5,065 bases of DNA from a virus (lineage: Duplodnaviria; Heunggongvirae; Uroviricota; Caudoviricetes), in the IMG/VR virus record IMGVR_UViG_2693429605_000002; one strand, 5' to 3'. Made by a program: the position numbers and the translations under genes. Shown here in pieces: positions 1 to 5,065 of this stretch. How positions within the stretch are numbered: the first letter of the stretch is position 1; every line of letters begins with the position of its first letter. The notes below the pieces were generated by a model. That model was not told the origin of the DNA. It saw nothing but the letters and a program-made list of their open reading frames with translations, and did not search any database.

Positions 1-2390
1 CCACCATAAACATCACCTTGATTGGTAAGCAGCAGGTAAGTTTTAGCGCCATCATTACGCCATAATGCCCCATACTCCCCACCTATCATTCGAATCTGAT
101 TACCACCACGCGCTACAATTTCGTCTGTGGCAAAAAGTTTTTTGCACGACAAGTTATCGTTAACGATTAACGAATGAGACTCATAAAAACCACGCCCACT
201 CTTAAAATCAAGGATAACGTCCGCCGCGATACATTCAGTCGCCGGATTTGTTGCCCCAAACTTATAGGTCGTATCATTAACAACGAGATCAGCACCAGGT
301 GCGGATATTGACAGGCCATCTTCGATAAACGCAAAAACAGGGAAAGCAGCGCCATCAACATAGAACACAGAGCGCAAATCATCGCCCTTATTACTCATCA
401 TTATTGAGTGGATGGCTCGTTCATTGTTTTGATATTGCCAGAACATTCCATAAGCATAACGCCCCCTGTCAGTCCAGCCACCAGGCATAACAAATCCGTT
501 AAACTCGCAGTTATTCATCGGATCGCCTGCGGTTCGCGTTGCCGTGGTGATAATGACCCTTGATGCCAGTTCGCTTACTGAGCCAGCAGAACGCATAACA
601 ACAACAGGGTAATATTTTCCAGATGTTGCACCTGCAGGAGCGTTAACCCGCACATAACGCATACCACGCTTATCAGCAAAGTCTGTTTTACTGACCGCGT
701 TAATGTTGTTCAGGAAGCGTCCCTTATCGGGTATATCAGCGCCGTTCTGGTCTTTCTGCAGACGTTTCTCTGCATTGTTATAGGCTGATTTTACTGCCTT
801 TGGCGTTGCCGCCAGCGTTTCAGACGTGCTGTTGGTCGCGCTGCTTAGCTGGATTATCCCTTTCTGTGCTGTCGTTGCATCCTGTGCGGTGTATTTCCCG
901 TTAGCCAGGTCATACGCGGCCTTAACGGCTTTTGGCGTTGCCGCCAGTGACTCGGAAGTGCTGTTGGTCGCACTGCTGAGCTGTACTATCCCCTTTTTCG
1001 TCGTGCTCGCATCCTCAAGCGCCACGGCGGATGCAATATCCTCTGCCCGTTTTGCCGCTGTCTCAGCGCGCGTTGCCGCGGATTCCGCCGTACTTTTGCT
1101 CTGAGCTGCTGCCGTCGCACTGCCAGCTGCCTCTGTCGCCTTCGTGGATGCCGTCGTGGCGCTACCCTTCGCTGCTGACGCCTGTCTGGTCGCTTCATCT
1201 TTTGAAGCAGACGCAGATGATGCCGATGACGACGCCGAACTGGCTGACGATGCGGCAGCCGTTTTTGAGGATTCTGCGCTGGTTTCCGACGCTTTCGCGT
1301 TCGTTTCGGATGTCTTCGCTGCGGAAGCAGACCTCGCTGCTGCGCTGGCCTGTTCAGTGGCTTCGCCAGCCTTCGTTGTGGCTGTTGAAGCAGACGATGC
1401 GGCGCTTTCTGCCGATTTTCCGGCGGCGCTAGCACTGGCTGAGGCCTGCCCGGCACTTGTTGACGCTGCACTGGCAGACGACGCAGCCGCTGTTTTTGAG
1501 CCTGCCGCAGCCGAGGCGCTCTGTCCCGCTGCCGTTTCAGAAGACCTGGCGTTCGTCTCTGACGTTTTTGCCGCCTTCGCGGAATTTCCTGCCGCTGTTG
1601 CCGAGGAAGCTGCGCTACTGGCGCTCGAGGATGCGTTCGTTTCTGATGATTTTGCCGCCTCTTTTGAAGCCGCCGCATCCCGGGCTGAGGTGGCAGCTTC
1701 TGACGCTTTCGTAGTCGCGGTGGATGCAGAAGTGGCTGCTGATTGTTGTGACGCTGCAGCATTAGTTTCTGACGTTTTTGCGGCACTGGCACTGGTAGCT
1801 GCCGCGCTTTTTGAGGACTCTGCAGCGGCAGCACTTTTTGATGCTTCAGTGGCCTTTGTTGATGCCGTTCCTGCGCTGGAAGTCGCTGACTGAGCCGACG
1901 ACGCGGCCTGTCCGGCTGACGTGCTGGCTGCGCGTGCTGAGCCTGCAGCATCAGTCGCATGGGTTGCCGCCTCACGGGCTGATGTGCTGGCATCACTGGC
2001 TGACTTCTTCGCGGCTGCCGTGTTCTGTGCCACCACGGACGCGTTACGCGCCACCTCTTCCACCATCAGCTCAAAACGGCGCAGTGCCTCCGGACGGGCA
2101 TCATCCTCCGTCATGGCACCGAGAAAATCATTCAGCGTACCGGGTCGGGAATCTTCATACACTGTGATGGTCCCGGCATGTGACGGCGGGAATCCTTCCA
2201 CCAACAGAATAACGCTGTACTGACCGTACTCAACGTCCATACTGTAACGCCCGGCTTCATCCGGATTTTCAGATGCCAGCGTGTTCACCACCACCGTGGT
2301 ACTGTTACGTTTTGCTTTCAGCTGGATTGTGCAGTTCTGTACCGGTTTTCCTGTGCCGTCTTTCAGTACACCTGAAATCTTTACTGCCAT
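1..2390 (-). CDS. stf: Side tail fibre protein Stf, N-terminal 796 codons; 3' end and stop lie beyond the window start
   Basis: Not in the ORF track. Hand translation from ATG (complement of 2388..2390) down to position 3 gives 796 codons with no stop: MAVKISGVLKDGTGKPVQNCTIQLKAKRNSTTVVVNTLASENPDEAGRYSMDVEYGQYSVILLVEGFPPSHAGTITVYEDSRPGTLNDFLGAMTEDDARPEALRRFELMVEEVARNASVVAQ..., then an Ala/Ser/Thr-rich region, two GI(V/I)QLSSATNSTSE(S/T)LAATPKAVK fibre-repeat motifs, and a distal region ending ...GGEYGALWRNDGAKTYLLLTNQGDVYGG at the window edge. The first ~110 residues match lambda Stf as I remember it almost residue for residue. A GGGGTGA Shine-Dalgarno sits 2 nt upstream of the ATG. Confidence 0.88.
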   Translation of the reverse strand, partial: MAVKISGVLKDGTGKPVQNCTIQLKAKRNSTTVVVNTLASENPDEAGRYSMDVEYGQYSVILLVEGFPPSHAGTITVYEDSRPGTLNDFLGAMTEDDARPEALRRFELMVEEVARNASVVAQNTAAAKKSASDASTSAREAATHATDAAGSARAASTSAGQAASSAQSATSSAGTASTKATEASKSAAAAESSKSAAATSASAAKTSETNAAASQQSAATSASTATTKASEAATSARDAAASKEAAKSSETNASSSASSAASSATAAGNSAKAAKTSETNARSSETAAGQSASAAAGSKTAAASSASAASTSAGQASASASAAGKSAESAASSASTATTKAGEATEQASAAARSASAAKTSETNAKASETSAESSKTAAASSASSASSSASSASASKDEATRQASAAKGSATTASTKATEAAGSATAAAQSKSTAESAATRAETAAKRAEDIASAVALEDASTTKKGIVQLSSATNSTSESLAATPKAVKAAYDLANGKYTAQDATTAQKGIIQLSSATNSTSETLAATPKAVKSAYNNAEKRLQKDQNGADIPDKGRFLNNINAVSKTDFADKRGMRYVRVNAPAGATSGKYYPVVVMRSAGSVSELASRVIITTATRTAGDPMNNCEFNGFVMPGGWTDRGRYAYGMFWQYQNNERAIHSIMMSNKGDDLRSVFYVDGAAFPVFAFIEDGLSISAPGADLVVNDTTYKFGATNPATECIAADVILDFKSGRGFYESHSLIVNDNLSCKKLFATDEIVARGGNQIRMIGGEYGALWRNDGAKTYLLLTNQGDVYG
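780..998 (-). repeat. Two copies of the conserved phage tail-fibre repeat motif within stf, 135 bp apart
   Basis: Copy A (998..912) encodes KKGIVQLSSATNSTSESLAATPKAVKAAY; copy B (863..780) encodes KGIIQLSSATNSTSETLAATPKAVKSAY. The DNA copies differ mainly at synonymous third positions. I recall this motif as a widely shared tail-fibre repeat found in lambda Stf and related fibres. Confidence 0.7.
1020..2030 (-). repeat. Ala/Ser/Thr-rich low-complexity, internally repetitive coding region of stf (fibre shaft)
   Basis: About 340 codons dominated by GCN/TCN/ACN codons. The motif (A/K)K(T/S)SETNA recurs four times (coding on minus strand near 1779, 1653, 1569 and 1319), with related SAA/ASS/TKA(T/S)EA blocks between. 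The composition is so biased that other frames and the antisense strand also stay open here (track ORFs 1144..1893 + and 986..1996 -). Confidence 0.65.
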
Positions 2391-2392
2391 AT

Positions 2393-2399
2393 TCACCCC
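2393..2399 (-). promoter_or_regulatory. Shine-Dalgarno sequence of stf
   Basis: Minus strand reads GGGGTGA (complement of 2393..2399), then AT, then ATG at 2390. The spacer is short, so this is tentative. Confidence 0.45.
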
Positions 2400-2401
2400 A
2401 C

Positions 2402-2428
2402 AAAAAAGCCCGCCTGAACCCGCGGGCT
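2402..2428 (-). terminator. Putative intrinsic (Rho-independent) terminator downstream of lom, immediately upstream of stf
   Basis: Plus strand 2407..2413 agcccgc pairs with 2422..2428 gcgggct (7-bp stem, 8-nt loop ctgaaccc). On the minus strand the hairpin is followed by a T-run (complement of the A-run at 2402..2407) that leads straight into the stf Shine-Dalgarno. It lies 27 nt downstream of the lom stop. Confidence 0.6.
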
Positions 2429-2454
2429 GTCATAACACTGTGTTACCTGGCTAA

Positions 2455-3054
2455 TCAGAACTTATAACCAACAGCCACGATGAACCCGTCAGTGCGCCAG
2501 TCACCACTGCCGGAGCCTTCATAAGCGACATCAATGGCCACGGATTCGGTCGGGTTAAACTGCACGCCAGCTCCCCACGCCAGAGACGTGTTGCTGTGGC
2601 GACCGTCATCACTTCCGGTCAGCACATCGTGCTTTTTCCCCTTGTTGTCAGTTACGCGGAGATAATCCCCGGAGAAAGTCGACACACGGCTGTAAGCCAT
2701 ACCCGCCATCGCATACGCGCTGAACCATTCATTCACGCGCACAGACGGCCCCGCCATCACGCTGAACCAGCGATTACGCACGGAATCCTCATGCCAGCGG
2801 GTATCGCTGTAATGCGTTTTTTGCTCATCTTCAGCGTTGGCATAACTGAATGACGTAATCAGCCCCAGCGTGTCCGTAAACTCATAACGGTATTTCACGT
2901 TAATCCCGTTCAGTTCATCGCTGCCAGGAACGTTCGTCGAGACATGAAGATACCCCGCGCTCAGCGTTGACTGATGTTCAGACGCCCATGCAGGCGCACC
3001 GGATACGGCCAGACAAATGGCTGCGGACAAAATGGCGGCATAAAGTTTACGCAT
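2455..3054 (-). CDS. lom: Lom outer-membrane protein, Ail/Lom/PagC/OmpX-family small beta-barrel (199 aa), lysogenic-conversion moron
   Basis: Complete ORF in the track. ATG is the complement of 3052..3054 and is preceded by a GAGAGG Shine-Dalgarno; stop TGA is the complement of 2455..2457. N-terminus MRKLYAAILSAAICLAVSGAPAWA has the n/h/c layout of a Sec signal peptide with an AxA cleavage site. The C-terminus ...YEGSGSGDWRTDGFIVAVGYKF ends in Phe, the typical outer-membrane beta-barrel signal, and closely matches the lambda Lom C-terminus as I remember it. Alternating aromatic/hydrophobic residues fit an 8-strand barrel. Position between J and stf is as in lambda. Confidence 0.92.
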   Translation of the reverse strand: MRKLYAAILSAAICLAVSGAPAWASEHQSTLSAGYLHVSTNVPGSDELNGINVKYRYEFTDTLGLITSFSYANAEDEQKTHYSDTRWHEDSVRNRWFSVMAGPSVRVNEWFSAYAMAGMAYSRVSTFSGDYLRVTDNKGKKHDVLTGSDDGRHSNTSLAWGAGVQFNPTESVAIDVAYEGSGSGDWRTDGFIVAVGYKF

Positions 3055-3058
3055 AATT

Positions 3059-3065
3059 ACCTCTC
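3059..3065 (-). promoter_or_regulatory. Shine-Dalgarno sequence of lom
   Basis: Minus strand reads GAGAGGT (complement of 3059..3065) followed by the 4-nt spacer AATT and then ATG at 3054. Confidence 0.5.
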
Positions 3066-3075
3066 GCTTTTCTGC

Positions 3076-3102
3076 AATAAAAAAGGCGCCATTTCTGGCG
3101 CC
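3076..3102 (-). terminator. Putative intrinsic (Rho-independent) terminator between J and lom
   Basis: Plus strand 3085..3091 ggcgcca pairs with 3096..3102 tggcgcc (7-bp stem, 6 GC pairs, 4-nt loop tttc). On the minus strand the hairpin is followed directly by TTTTTTATT (complement of 3076..3084). It lies 20 nt downstream of the J stop and upstream of the lom RBS. No T-tract follows on the plus strand, so it is unidirectional. Confidence 0.6.
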
Positions 3103-3121
3103 CGTATATGGGTTATAAAAT

Positions 3122-5065
3122 TCAGCTGATACTGATGCCTGCGGTGGCTTTCTTCATCACCACAACCAGCAAATCGCTGATACTTGCTGTGGGATACCAG
3201 TTATTCACCAGCCATGCTGATACCGAAAACTCCAGCGTCATGTGACCGTGACCGGCAGGCATATCAATAACGCCACTGTAAATCAGCGTATTATCCAGCG
3301 CGGTACGGTTATAAATTTCAGCACCGTTTTTCCGCACTATCAGACGGCATGAGGAGTAAATATCAGTATGCTCTCTCTCATGCTTAGCGCCACTGAATGC
3401 CACCGCCGGAATAACAATCTGCCGGTCAAACGGCTGATCGTCATAAACCCTGACGGTAATGGTCCCTGATGGCCACCGCTCCGGTGCACGGGAGTCACGG
3501 GGGAAAGCTTTGCCCACTGTTTTAACGAGATCGCCTTCAATCTGGTTCGCGGACAGTTTTCCCAGAACCCGGCAGTTCTCGTTAATCGTGACGTTGTTGA
3601 GCGTCCCGGAGTTCGCATTCACGTTACCGCTAATATCGGCATTTTTCGCCGTCAGCCGCCCGTCCGGTGTCAGGGAAAATGCCGGAGGATTACCGCCGCT
3701 GGTAATGGTGGGAGCCGTCAGATATTTCAGGAACACGTCGTTCATGAATATCTGATCGCCCTGACCAACAAACATCGGCTTTGTGTTGCCATTCGCAGGA
3801 TTAATCATCGCAATCCTGTCCGCCGCCAGCAGCACCTGACTCTGCATACCGTCAGGGGTATTCTCAATACCGGCACCAATACCCGCGATATAAAGGCGTC
3901 CGTCCTGCATCTGCTGCAGCTTCACAGCCCACATGCTGTTCAGGTTATTATTTGTATCAACCTGAACCTTCTGTATCTGCTGGATCGCTGCACTCTGGTC
4001 TTCCAGTTTCTTATTGACGGTCTGCGTGATTTCATTACTGACATCCGTGATGGACGTTCTGATTTCCGCCAGGTCAGGCGCAAGCTGACCGTTATCAATC
4101 TGAGTCCACAACTCCTGAGCCAGATGGGTTTTCCCTATCTCTCCTTTGAAAAAATCCAGATAGCCGGATGCATCATCACTCGGCTGGCCAACAGCCTCCA
4201 CAAATGCCGATTTGCCAACGGTGTTCACACTGCGGATATAAAAGTAATAATCATGGCCCGGTTTGATATTGATACTGGCGGCTATCCAGTACAGCCCCGT
4301 GCCAAGGTAGCGGGCTGTGGTTTCAACCTGCCTGATATCGGTAATCCGCGTTTCCGAAAACCAGAACTCAAACTGTACCGTCGGGTCATACACCGCAAGA
4401 CGCGGGACCGCTGTTATCTGAAAATAGCCCGGTGTCAGCTCAATCTGTGACGGCGCTGCCGGTGCGGCAATCAGGAACGATACCGACGCCGGATCGCCCT
4501 GCTGTCCCCGGGCATTTACCGCCCGGACTGTCAGCGTGTAACGCCCCAGCGCCAGTTGTGTGAAGCGGTATGTGGTTTCTGCCGTCCGGGCTGTGCTGAC
4601 CAGCCGCTCACTGCCGTCATCCGCTGCCACGGTCAGGCGAAGCATGAAACTCACGCCCTTCACCACCTTCGGCGTGTCCCATCGCGCCAGCACCTGATAT
4701 TCCCCGCTGTCTGCGGTGACTTCGGCAGTCAGGTGCTGCACTGCTGGCGGCGTGACACCATTCACCGTGCCGCTCTGGTCGCCGTCAAAGTGCGCCCCGT
4801 TATCCACGATGGCTTCTTTTTCCGGTACATGCTGCACGGCGGTGATGGCATACGTGCCGTCGTCGTTCTCACGGATACTCACGCAGCGGAACAGGCGCTG
4901 GCGCAGCGTCGGCAGCTTCAGCCCCCACACGCTGTATCCGGCAACGCCGTCAGGAACACGGCTCACTTTTACCTTCACGCCGTCGGTGACGGACTGGACC
5001 TCCACGCTGACCGGATTGCCACTTCCGTCAACCAGGCTTATCAGCGTGGTACCGGAGGATGGCAG
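3122..5065 (-). CDS. J: Host-specificity / tail-tip attachment protein J, C-terminal part (647 codons plus stop); 5' end lies beyond the window end
   Basis: ORF track gives 3122..5005 (627 aa) beginning at an internal GTG. Hand translation of 5065..5006 in the same frame reads [20 protein letters not shown] with no stop, so the gene continues upstream out of the window. Stop codon TGA is the complement of 3122..3124. Identification rests on position (directly upstream of lom and stf, 67-bp gap to lom), large size, and beta-rich composition with segments resembling fibronectin-III-like repeats (e.g. [32 protein letters not shown]); no database search was possible. Confidence 0.88.

Follow-up and report, generated by a model that had tools for sequence, protein, structure and literature searches.

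An uninterrupted side-tail-fibre (stf) reading frame cut by the end of a short prophage contig

The window analyzed here is the whole stretch of 5,065 nucleotides, which is the complete 5,065-bp draft contig CYDP01000063.1. The open frame on the minus strand of positions 1 to 2390 is genuine and represents the 5' two-thirds of a common E. coli prophage side-tail-fibre gene of the StfR/StfQ type. Very probably it corresponds to codons 1-796 of a lambdoid prophage stf of about 1,176 codons; in near-identical genomes this prophage occupies the Qin (ydfJ) site. The gene is already known and is an unexceptional representative of a very widespread family, and the case is less remarkable than the earlier note implied because Stf proteins of such length and architecture are usual for prophages of E. 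coli (StfR of K-12 has 1,120 aa).

Open reading frame and gene neighbourhood

Translation of positions 1 to 2390 yielded 796 sense codons on the minus strand, from the ATG at 2390 to base 3 with bases 2 and 1 left over, in agreement with the uninterrupted frame described in the earlier note, and neither an in-frame stop codon nor a frameshift was found. The translated frame begins MAVKISGVLKDG. Given the base composition of the stf strand, the per-codon stop probability was 0.042, and the probability of 796 open codons was accordingly about 1.3e-15; in 2,000 runs of shuffled sequence the longest open run had a mean of 118 codons and a maximum of 280. Reading of the sequence upstream of the frame revealed TAG and TGA in-frame stops, as well as GGGG at 2399-2396, preceding the stf ATG (2390-2388), within a Shine-Dalgarno-like GGGGTGA (2393-2399, minus strand) located five bases 5' of the ATG. 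The start codon agrees with the RefSeq annotation of 99.8%-identical copies.

With 796 codons, compared to 647 for the fragment of J, the stf frame is the longest in the window, yet it is absent from the ORF list, so that the largest gene is indeed easily missed. J is listed although it runs off the window edge, its stop codon falling inside the window, and stf is missing because no stop codon lies within the window, as had been suspected. Both contig ends fall within genes, and stf is cut at base 1 because the window is an entire short-read draft contig with one boundary in stf itself. For clean annotation, edge-truncated ORFs should be permitted, since a list restricted to frames with a stop codon loses the longest gene on a short contig without notice.

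The gene order on the minus strand (J C-terminus at 5065-3122, lom at 3054-2455, and stf from 2390) is identical to that of lambda. The 3' 647 codons of J, encoding the tail tip or central fibre (3122-5065, minus strand), are open to the contig end, contain Ig_J, Phage_Tail_Tip, and Ig_GpJ_C domains, and are 69.7% identical to lambda J 513-1131. The complete lom gene (2455-3054, minus strand) encodes a 199-aa Ail/Lom outer-membrane beta-barrel protein (Pfam PF06316, E = 7e-125), which an exact-protein look-up found on three contigs including the window's own. A consensus scan placed a terminator-like hairpin with a T-run at 2407-2428 on the same strand, after lom and just 5' of stf.

Module architecture and comparison with known fibres

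The identification of the frame as stf holds on the basis of this gene order together with the N-terminal tail-attachment domain at aa 1-134 (1989-2390, minus strand), which matched all 134 profile positions of Pfam PF08400 (phage_tail_N, E = 9.7e-72). The PDB chain 9e7m_Ta, deposited as "Tail fiber protein", matched aa 1-94 with E = 2e-51, residues 1-100 are approximately 90% identical to lambda Stf, and tail-fibre PHROGs matched the protein at E-values down to 1e-139. No NCBIfam model fitted the full protein.

The attachment domain is followed by an Ala/Ser/Thr-rich low-complexity rod at aa ~135-460 (1011-1988, minus strand; A 37%, S 25%, T 12%), in which the second codon position has a GC of 0.80. 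Opposite this rod lies a plus-strand ORF of 249 aa (1144-1893), a counterpart of lambda orf206b, and it is extremely improbable that this ORF rather than the minus-strand frame is the real coding feature. It is called by gene callers and matched PHROG 560 (E = 8e-122) and lambda orf206b (86% over 80 aa). However, it lies wholly within the Ala/Ser-rich segment, where stf has 80% GC at codon position 2 and opposite-strand stops are suppressed, it encodes a low-complexity run of Ala, Asp, Val, and Phe of no known function, and the sense frame has overwhelming tail-fibre homology; the conservation of the antisense ORF follows from that of stf itself. The use of dN/dS to discriminate sense from antisense coding was discarded since the wobble positions of the two frames coincide.

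The rod aligns with lambda Stf 135-355 except for one insertion, a 105-aa extension at aa 304-408 (1167-1481, minus strand) that appears as a single 105-residue gap in lambda in the global alignment and is also present in K-12 StfR. Two "Phage tail fibre repeat" units follow at aa 462-546 (753-1007, minus strand; Pfam PF03406, two stretches, E = 4e-36). The second, 44-aa unit is found in neither lambda Stf nor K-12 StfR, the latter being gapped at 44 positions in the alignment. At the DNA level the pair corresponds to a 107-nt two-copy direct repeat (777-883 and 909-1015, spacing 132 nt), which is the only detectable repeat in positions 1 to 2390, where Tandem Repeats Finder reported no arrays. 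The Ala/Ser-rich region is a compositional bias and not a regular DNA tandem repeat.

The shaft module at aa 547-706 (273-752, minus strand) lies within the block that substitutes for lambda Stf 391-528. It had no Pfam match in searches of the window and of the full allele and matched PHROG 36614 and PHROG 745, both of unknown function; it is 98-100% identical to K-12 StfR, and its GC3 drops to 0.41. The last module in the window, at aa 707-796 (3-272, minus strand), resembles the C-terminal trimerisation domain of T4 gp34 (Pfam PF21446, Gp34_trimer; E = 3.7e-20, with a score of 73 bits where the gathering cutoff is 27, and covering positions 25-106 of the 116-position profile). This domain runs from aa 707 to 806 in the full-length allele of the sister assembly L003, so that the contig end removes its last 10 residues, and the T4 gp34 chains 4uxe and 5nxf in the PDB matched aa 750-821 of that allele. 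In the same allele, beyond the window, a Collar domain (PF07484) is located at aa 951-998, and T4 gp37 (PDB 2xgf) matched aa 945-1176 with E = 6e-86; the gp37-like tip therefore lies outside the window. The resemblance to gp34 and gp37 is restricted to single modules within a siphophage side fibre, the remainder being unrelated to T4 fibres. Similarly, the S/S' fibre of phage Mu (PDB 5yvq, 8ju3) matched locally at aa 490-565 and 857-951 of the full allele, these being short shaft segments in a fibre with another attachment domain and from a phage of another type.

Laboratory lambda carries stf split into orf-401 and orf-314, both according to its annotation and in the literature (PMC12617516), in agreement with the earlier note; the visible part of the allele studied here is without this frameshift. 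Repaired lambda Stf was rebuilt by putting back one base and had 774 aa, close to the roughly 770 aa expected. The statement that the present fibre is larger than that of lambda was borne out, since the 796 visible codons already exceed 774 aa and the identical L003 allele encodes 1,176 aa, 402 more than Ur-lambda Stf. Three additions in the global alignment account for the greater length: the 105-aa rod extension, the extra 44-aa repeat, and a block of approximately 450 aa, T4 gp34- and Mu S-like, that replaces lambda 391-528. The remaining parts are shared with Ur-lambda Stf. The N-terminal domain and rod are approximately 88% identical over aa 1-303 (an estimate made on the alignment by eye rather than a calculated value), the first fibre repeat is common to both, the tip of the full allele (947-1176) is 71% identical to lambda 529-774, and the gene occupies the same place after J-lom and before tfa. 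The module junctions of the alignment to lambda Stf coincide with the engineered fusion points R393 and S528 (PMC11338833).

The closer relative is StfR of the K-12 Rac prophage (WP_000279097.1, 1,120 aa), which was 96.1% identical to the full allele over 1,113 aligned positions in a MAFFT global alignment; a value of 74% from blastp was discarded as it resulted from a register slip in the low-complexity rod. The module order is the same, a tfa gene directly follows StfR, and in the window part the two proteins agree at 727 of 740 aligned positions, with the gp34-like middle block included in the high identity. Blocks of 50 aa were 94-100% identical except at the repeat, where StfR has one Phage_fiber_2 unit instead of two (44 aa fewer), and at a divergent tip patch (aa ~1051-1100). 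StfR also differs in being located in another, defective prophage.

Cryo-electron microscopy of Ur-lambda described four trimeric fibres with an N-terminal collar attachment, a gp37-like tip, and binding to OmpC, and its Stf fibres on the virion speed adsorption via an outer-membrane receptor (PMC12617516). By homology, the product of the present gene would be a homotrimeric fibre that is anchored to the tail-tip collar by aa 1-134 and lengthened by the Ala/Ser-rich rod, the two fibre repeats, and the T4 gp34/Mu S-like shaft block. Beyond the window, the Collar domain and a His-rich tip similar to those of T4 gp37 and lambda would bind an outer-membrane receptor reversibly and thereby accelerate adsorption, and Tfa, encoded directly downstream of stf, may help the tip to fold. 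Such fibres are of practical interest for the engineering of lambda particles, to which they offer a natural supply of receptor-binding modules (PMC11338833); the window, being without the receptor-binding tip, adds nothing new in this respect.

The full-length allele and its state in related genomes

The sister assembly L003 is identical to the stf part of the window at 2390 of 2390 nt, and there the frame continues for 380 codons to a stop, giving 1,176 aa; the window thus contains the 5' 68% of this allele, i.e., 796 of 1,176 codons plus 2 bases. The earlier note had proposed to look for the stop and for tfa in flanking sequence, and in L003 both are present, with tfa (PF02413) directly downstream of stf, followed by ydfJ/ydfI, which mark the Qin prophage site. 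The tfa product (tfaQ), a Caudo_TAP protein of 193 aa, begins where stf stops, both in L003 and in complete genomes, beyond the window. Copies 99.8% identical to the stf part of the window are annotated as intact in several complete E. coli chromosomes under WP_071940856.1 (1,176 aa, "prophage tail fiber N-terminal domain-containing protein"), which differs from the window by 5 nt and 1 aa (N538D) across the 796 visible codons. The gene is found at the Qin/ydfJ site of E. coli ARL09/232, CFSAN064035, PC-NDM34, and MS 145-7, with J and lom upstream as in the window and tfaQ downstream, and together with tfaQ it adjoins a truncated ydfJ in complete genomes. Among 5,426 complete genomes of E. coli, 1,234 had matches over at least 80% of the stf segment.

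Whether the unseen 3' third is likewise intact was judged from these relatives. It is unlikely that the gene is a pseudogene whose 796 visible codons are followed by a frameshift, stop, or deletion, even though disrupted copies exist. Among ten near-identical copies sampled from complete genomes, two carry a lesion, in each case downstream of codon 796 (D10, where a frameshift leads to a stop at codon 843, and A19, with a stop at codon 919), and the draft assembly L004, with an identical Lom, has a 601-bp frameshifting deletion in stf, at the edges of which no repeat beyond 2-3 nt of microhomology was found that could account for it. The other eight copies are intact, as is the identical L003 allele, and dN/dS of stf was 0.07-0.10, i.e., around 0.1, indicative of purifying selection. 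The suggestion that the fibre is probably functional is reasonable in view of the dN/dS and of the intact copies, its function being putative on the evidence of the window.

Alternatively, the gene may be intact and yet reside in a cryptic, non-inducible prophage, its fibre never reaching a virion and the locus serving as a reservoir of modules for incoming lambdoid phages in the manner of stfR/tfaQ of K-12. This is possible, if doubtful. The 96% identical StfR of K-12 lies in the defective Rac prophage, beside a lom interrupted by an IS and a tape-measure gene that is truncated, the Qin site of K-12 also houses a defective prophage, and lambda recombines with both Rac and Qin across stf-tfa (PMC3945230). 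On the other hand, in the close relatives all tail genes upstream of stf (J, I, K, L, M, and the tape-measure gene) are annotated as intact, neither J nor lom is interrupted within the window, and the purifying selection on stf is strong.

All sampled copies that share at least 99.6% identity with the window extend into the 1,176-codon form, and the last base of the window agrees with L003 and disagrees with the E. coli genome L011. It is improbable that the 3' end is instead unlike this allele, having another tip or a deletion, or that the contig is a collapsed repeat of two prophages with different fibre ends. Several features of the contig would fit such a case. Both contig ends lie inside genes, E. 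coli genomes contain a median of three places resembling the window, and the contig end is located 1 nt from the start of the 339-bp deletion carried by L011 and at a distance of 12 nt from the edge of the L004 deletion. Variants that differ at the 3' end while their 5' part is nearly identical include L011, with this deletion, and ECO20, in which a different tip patch is joined to a 98% identical 5' part in a protein of 1,160 aa. The contig end falls at the start of a conserved GWNTLRPF motif, and we regard it as a quite improbable option that this position is a hotspot at which distal fibre modules are preferentially exchanged by recombination or deletion and that two prophages of the source strain share the 5-kb J-lom-stf segment and differ in their receptor-binding ends. 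Isolated phages also carry a fibre of this kind, e.g., Chlobot, with a 1,107-aa version together with tfa.

An open side tail fibre frame in the window

The minus-strand frame that starts with the ATG at 2390 was translated as far as the window edge and gave 796 codons with zero stops (the product begins MAVKISGVLKDGTGKPVQNC), which confirms the unbroken stf frame described in the earlier note. The probability of 796 open codons under the base composition of the minus strand is approximately 1.3e-15, and the longest open run in 2,000 shuffles had a mean of 118 codons and a maximum of at most 280. A Shine-Dalgarno-like element, GGGG(TGA), lies 5' of the ATG, TAG and TGA stops are found in frame upstream of it, and the same start codon is used in the RefSeq annotation of near-identical genes. 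As the note had also proposed, the frame was missing from the ORF listing because its stop is not in the window: J, which likewise leaves the window and has its stop inside, was listed. The technical lesson is that scans of short contigs should admit edge-truncated ORFs.

The product was identified by its matches to PFAM phage_tail_N (residues 1-134, E=9.7e-72), two Phage_fiber_2 repeats (E=4e-36) and, partially, the T4 Gp34_trimer model (residues 707-796). The top PHROGs were tail-fibre families, and residues 1-94 matched a chain of PDB 9e7m deposited as "Tail fiber protein" (E=2e-51). All 2,390 stf bases are identical in L003 (GCA_001284125.1, a neighbouring accession), where a further 380 codons precede the stop, giving 1,176 aa in total, and a 193-aa Caudo_TAP assembly protein follows directly 3', then ydfJ and ydfI; the stop and tfa that the earlier note had proposed to look for in flanking sequence were thus both found in an identical allele. 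The same gene, 5 nt and 1 aa from the window, is annotated as intact in the complete E. coli chromosomes ARL09/232, CFSAN064035, PC-NDM34 and MS 145-7 (WP_071940856.1, 1,176 aa), with tfaQ and a truncated ydfJ after it; this locus is the Qin prophage site. In CFSAN064035 the prophage end carries an IS1 element that separates tfaQ from ydfJ (L008:2318-3015), and ARL09/232 lacks it at the same place. StfR of the K-12 Rac prophage (1,120 aa) shares 96.1% protein identity with the full 1,176-aa allele, in isolated phages, Chlobot among them, the gene comes in a 1,107-aa version with tfa after it, and at least 80% of the window stf segment is covered in 1,234 of 5,426 complete E. coli genomes. The gene is of an ordinary E. 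coli prophage type that has been annotated before and has near-identical RefSeq proteins, and exceeding lambda Stf in length is typical of the family, not exceptional.

Comparison with lambda Stf

In the lambda record orf-401 and orf-314 are separate genes, and restoring one base between them rebuilt a Stf of 774 aa, in agreement with the published account of a frameshift that abolished the side fibres of laboratory lambda (PMC12617516; PMC3945230). The earlier note's account of a split gene and a repaired product of roughly 770 aa was therefore accurate, as was the claim of a fibre larger than that of lambda (796 visible codons, and 1,176 aa in the L003 allele, versus 774). The length and domain-order comparison suggested in the earlier note was performed by global alignment of the rebuilt lambda Stf with the 1,176-aa allele, and it revealed shared ends, a larger middle block and a rod extension. 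Allele residues 1-303 match lambda 1-303, residues 304-408 have no lambda counterpart and lengthen the Ala/Ser-rich rod by 105 aa, and residues 409-495 match lambda 304-390. Lambda 391-528 is replaced by a different, larger block (496-946) containing a second 44-aa fibre repeat, an unannotated shaft segment, a gp34-like domain and Mu S-like segments, and residues 947-1176, a T4 gp37-like tip (PDB 2xgf, E=6e-86), match lambda 529-774 at 71% identity. The additional fibre repeat is visible in the DNA as a 107-nt direct repeat (777-883 and 909-1015). Both natural junctions coincide with R393 and S528, the fusion points at which lambda Stf chimeras have been engineered (PMC11338833). The window stops at residue 796 and lacks the last 10 residues of the gp34-like domain, along with the Collar domain, receptor-binding tip, stop codon and tfa.

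The GC content is approximately 0.61 in the Ala/Ser-rich rod (window 1000-2000) versus 0.45-0.47 in the distal shaft module (1-750), where GC3 falls to 0.41; this drop is consistent with a separate, T4/Mu-like evolutionary origin of the middle block. Two further ORFs overlap the Ala/Ser-rich part of stf. The 249-aa antisense ORF at 1144-1893 (plus strand) corresponds to orf206b of lambda (86% identity over 80 aa) and has a match to PHROG 560, a family of unknown function; there are gene calls for it in all three contigs that encode the exact Lom of the window (L003, L004 and L005); the 336-aa ORF at 986-1996 (minus strand, frame 1, a different frame from stf) overlaps the same region. Since codon position 2 of stf reaches 80% GC there, and since the wobble positions of the 249-aa ORF coincide with those of stf, the two ORFs are most probably artefacts of base composition.

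Intactness and predicted function

The dN/dS of the window stf against its relatives was 0.07-0.10, with mainly synonymous substitutions, which points to recent purifying selection. Among 10 near-identical copies sampled from complete genomes eight were annotated as intact and two were disrupted, D10 by a frameshift that brings in a stop at codon 843 and A19 because codon 919 is a stop; the lesions are past codon 796 in both cases and hence off the window. The draft contig L004 carries a frameshifting 601-bp deletion from codon 601. Given the intact 5' two-thirds, stf in the source genome is quite likely to be intact. The interpretation of the earlier note is supported overall: for its "probably functional" fibre, the frame is intact over 796 codons and the substitution pattern is favourable, and functionality itself is a prediction from sequence.

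In Ur-lambda a dodecameric collar at the tail tip anchors the N-terminal regions of four trimeric side fibres, which extend past the central fibre, bind OmpC reversibly via a gp37-like tip and make adsorption 10-30 fold faster, yet are non-essential (PMC12617516). The window Stf has the anchor in common with Ur-lambda and the identical allele adds a like tip and chaperone, so that by homology the fibre would act as in Ur-lambda, with a longer shaft. The tip of the full allele has patches unlike lambda and unlike StfR.

Contig ends and neighbouring genes

The complete Lom, looked up as an exact sequence, matched three contigs, and the window is all of one of them (L005; CYDP01000063.1, 5,065 bp, GCA_001283505.1), reversed and 100% identical. 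Both termini are intragenic, one in J and the other in stf, and the truncation of stf is an assembly break, not biology. Over the 500 nt across the contig end, stfR and many further fibre genes of prophages are approximately 98% identical to the allele, and E. coli genomes typically contain several places similar to the window (median 3); the most economical explanation would be an assembly-graph branch due to another stf-like copy in this genome. In E. coli Z1323PEC0011 stf has an in-frame deletion of 339 bp that starts 1 nt from the final base of the window (L011:4749), the deletion in L004 has its right edge (L004:2757) 12 nt from that base, and the contig end and both deletion edges coincide with the beginning of the conserved GWNTLRPF motif. 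This site may be a hotspot of recombination or deletion, or a branch point of the assembly graph. In Z1323PEC0011 a gene for a 296-aa macro-domain protein (L011:5520-6410) lies between a frameshifted stf and tfa, perhaps as a cargo or defence-related insertion into this fibre module.

On the minus strand the C-terminal part of J (5065-3122, 647 codons) and the complete lom (3054-2455, 199 aa) are each followed by a GC-rich, terminator-like hairpin with a T-run (3103-3084 and 2428-2407, respectively), and stf starts at 2390 and leaves the contig. Because of these hairpins transcription of stf would need read-through or a promoter of its own. No sigma-70-like promoter was found in a scan of window 2300-3200; late transcription in lambda is Q-antiterminated and proceeds by read-through. 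The 647 aa of J are just 69.7% identical to lambda J 513-1131, and the final ~460 nt, encoding the receptor-binding end (minus-strand positions 1482-1944), have no DNA match to lambda. Compared with J of L003 the identity was 93.5% over 930 nt with an additional unmatched stretch of 350 nt, whereas lom and stf are nearly identical between the two contigs, so that a mosaic junction lies inside J.
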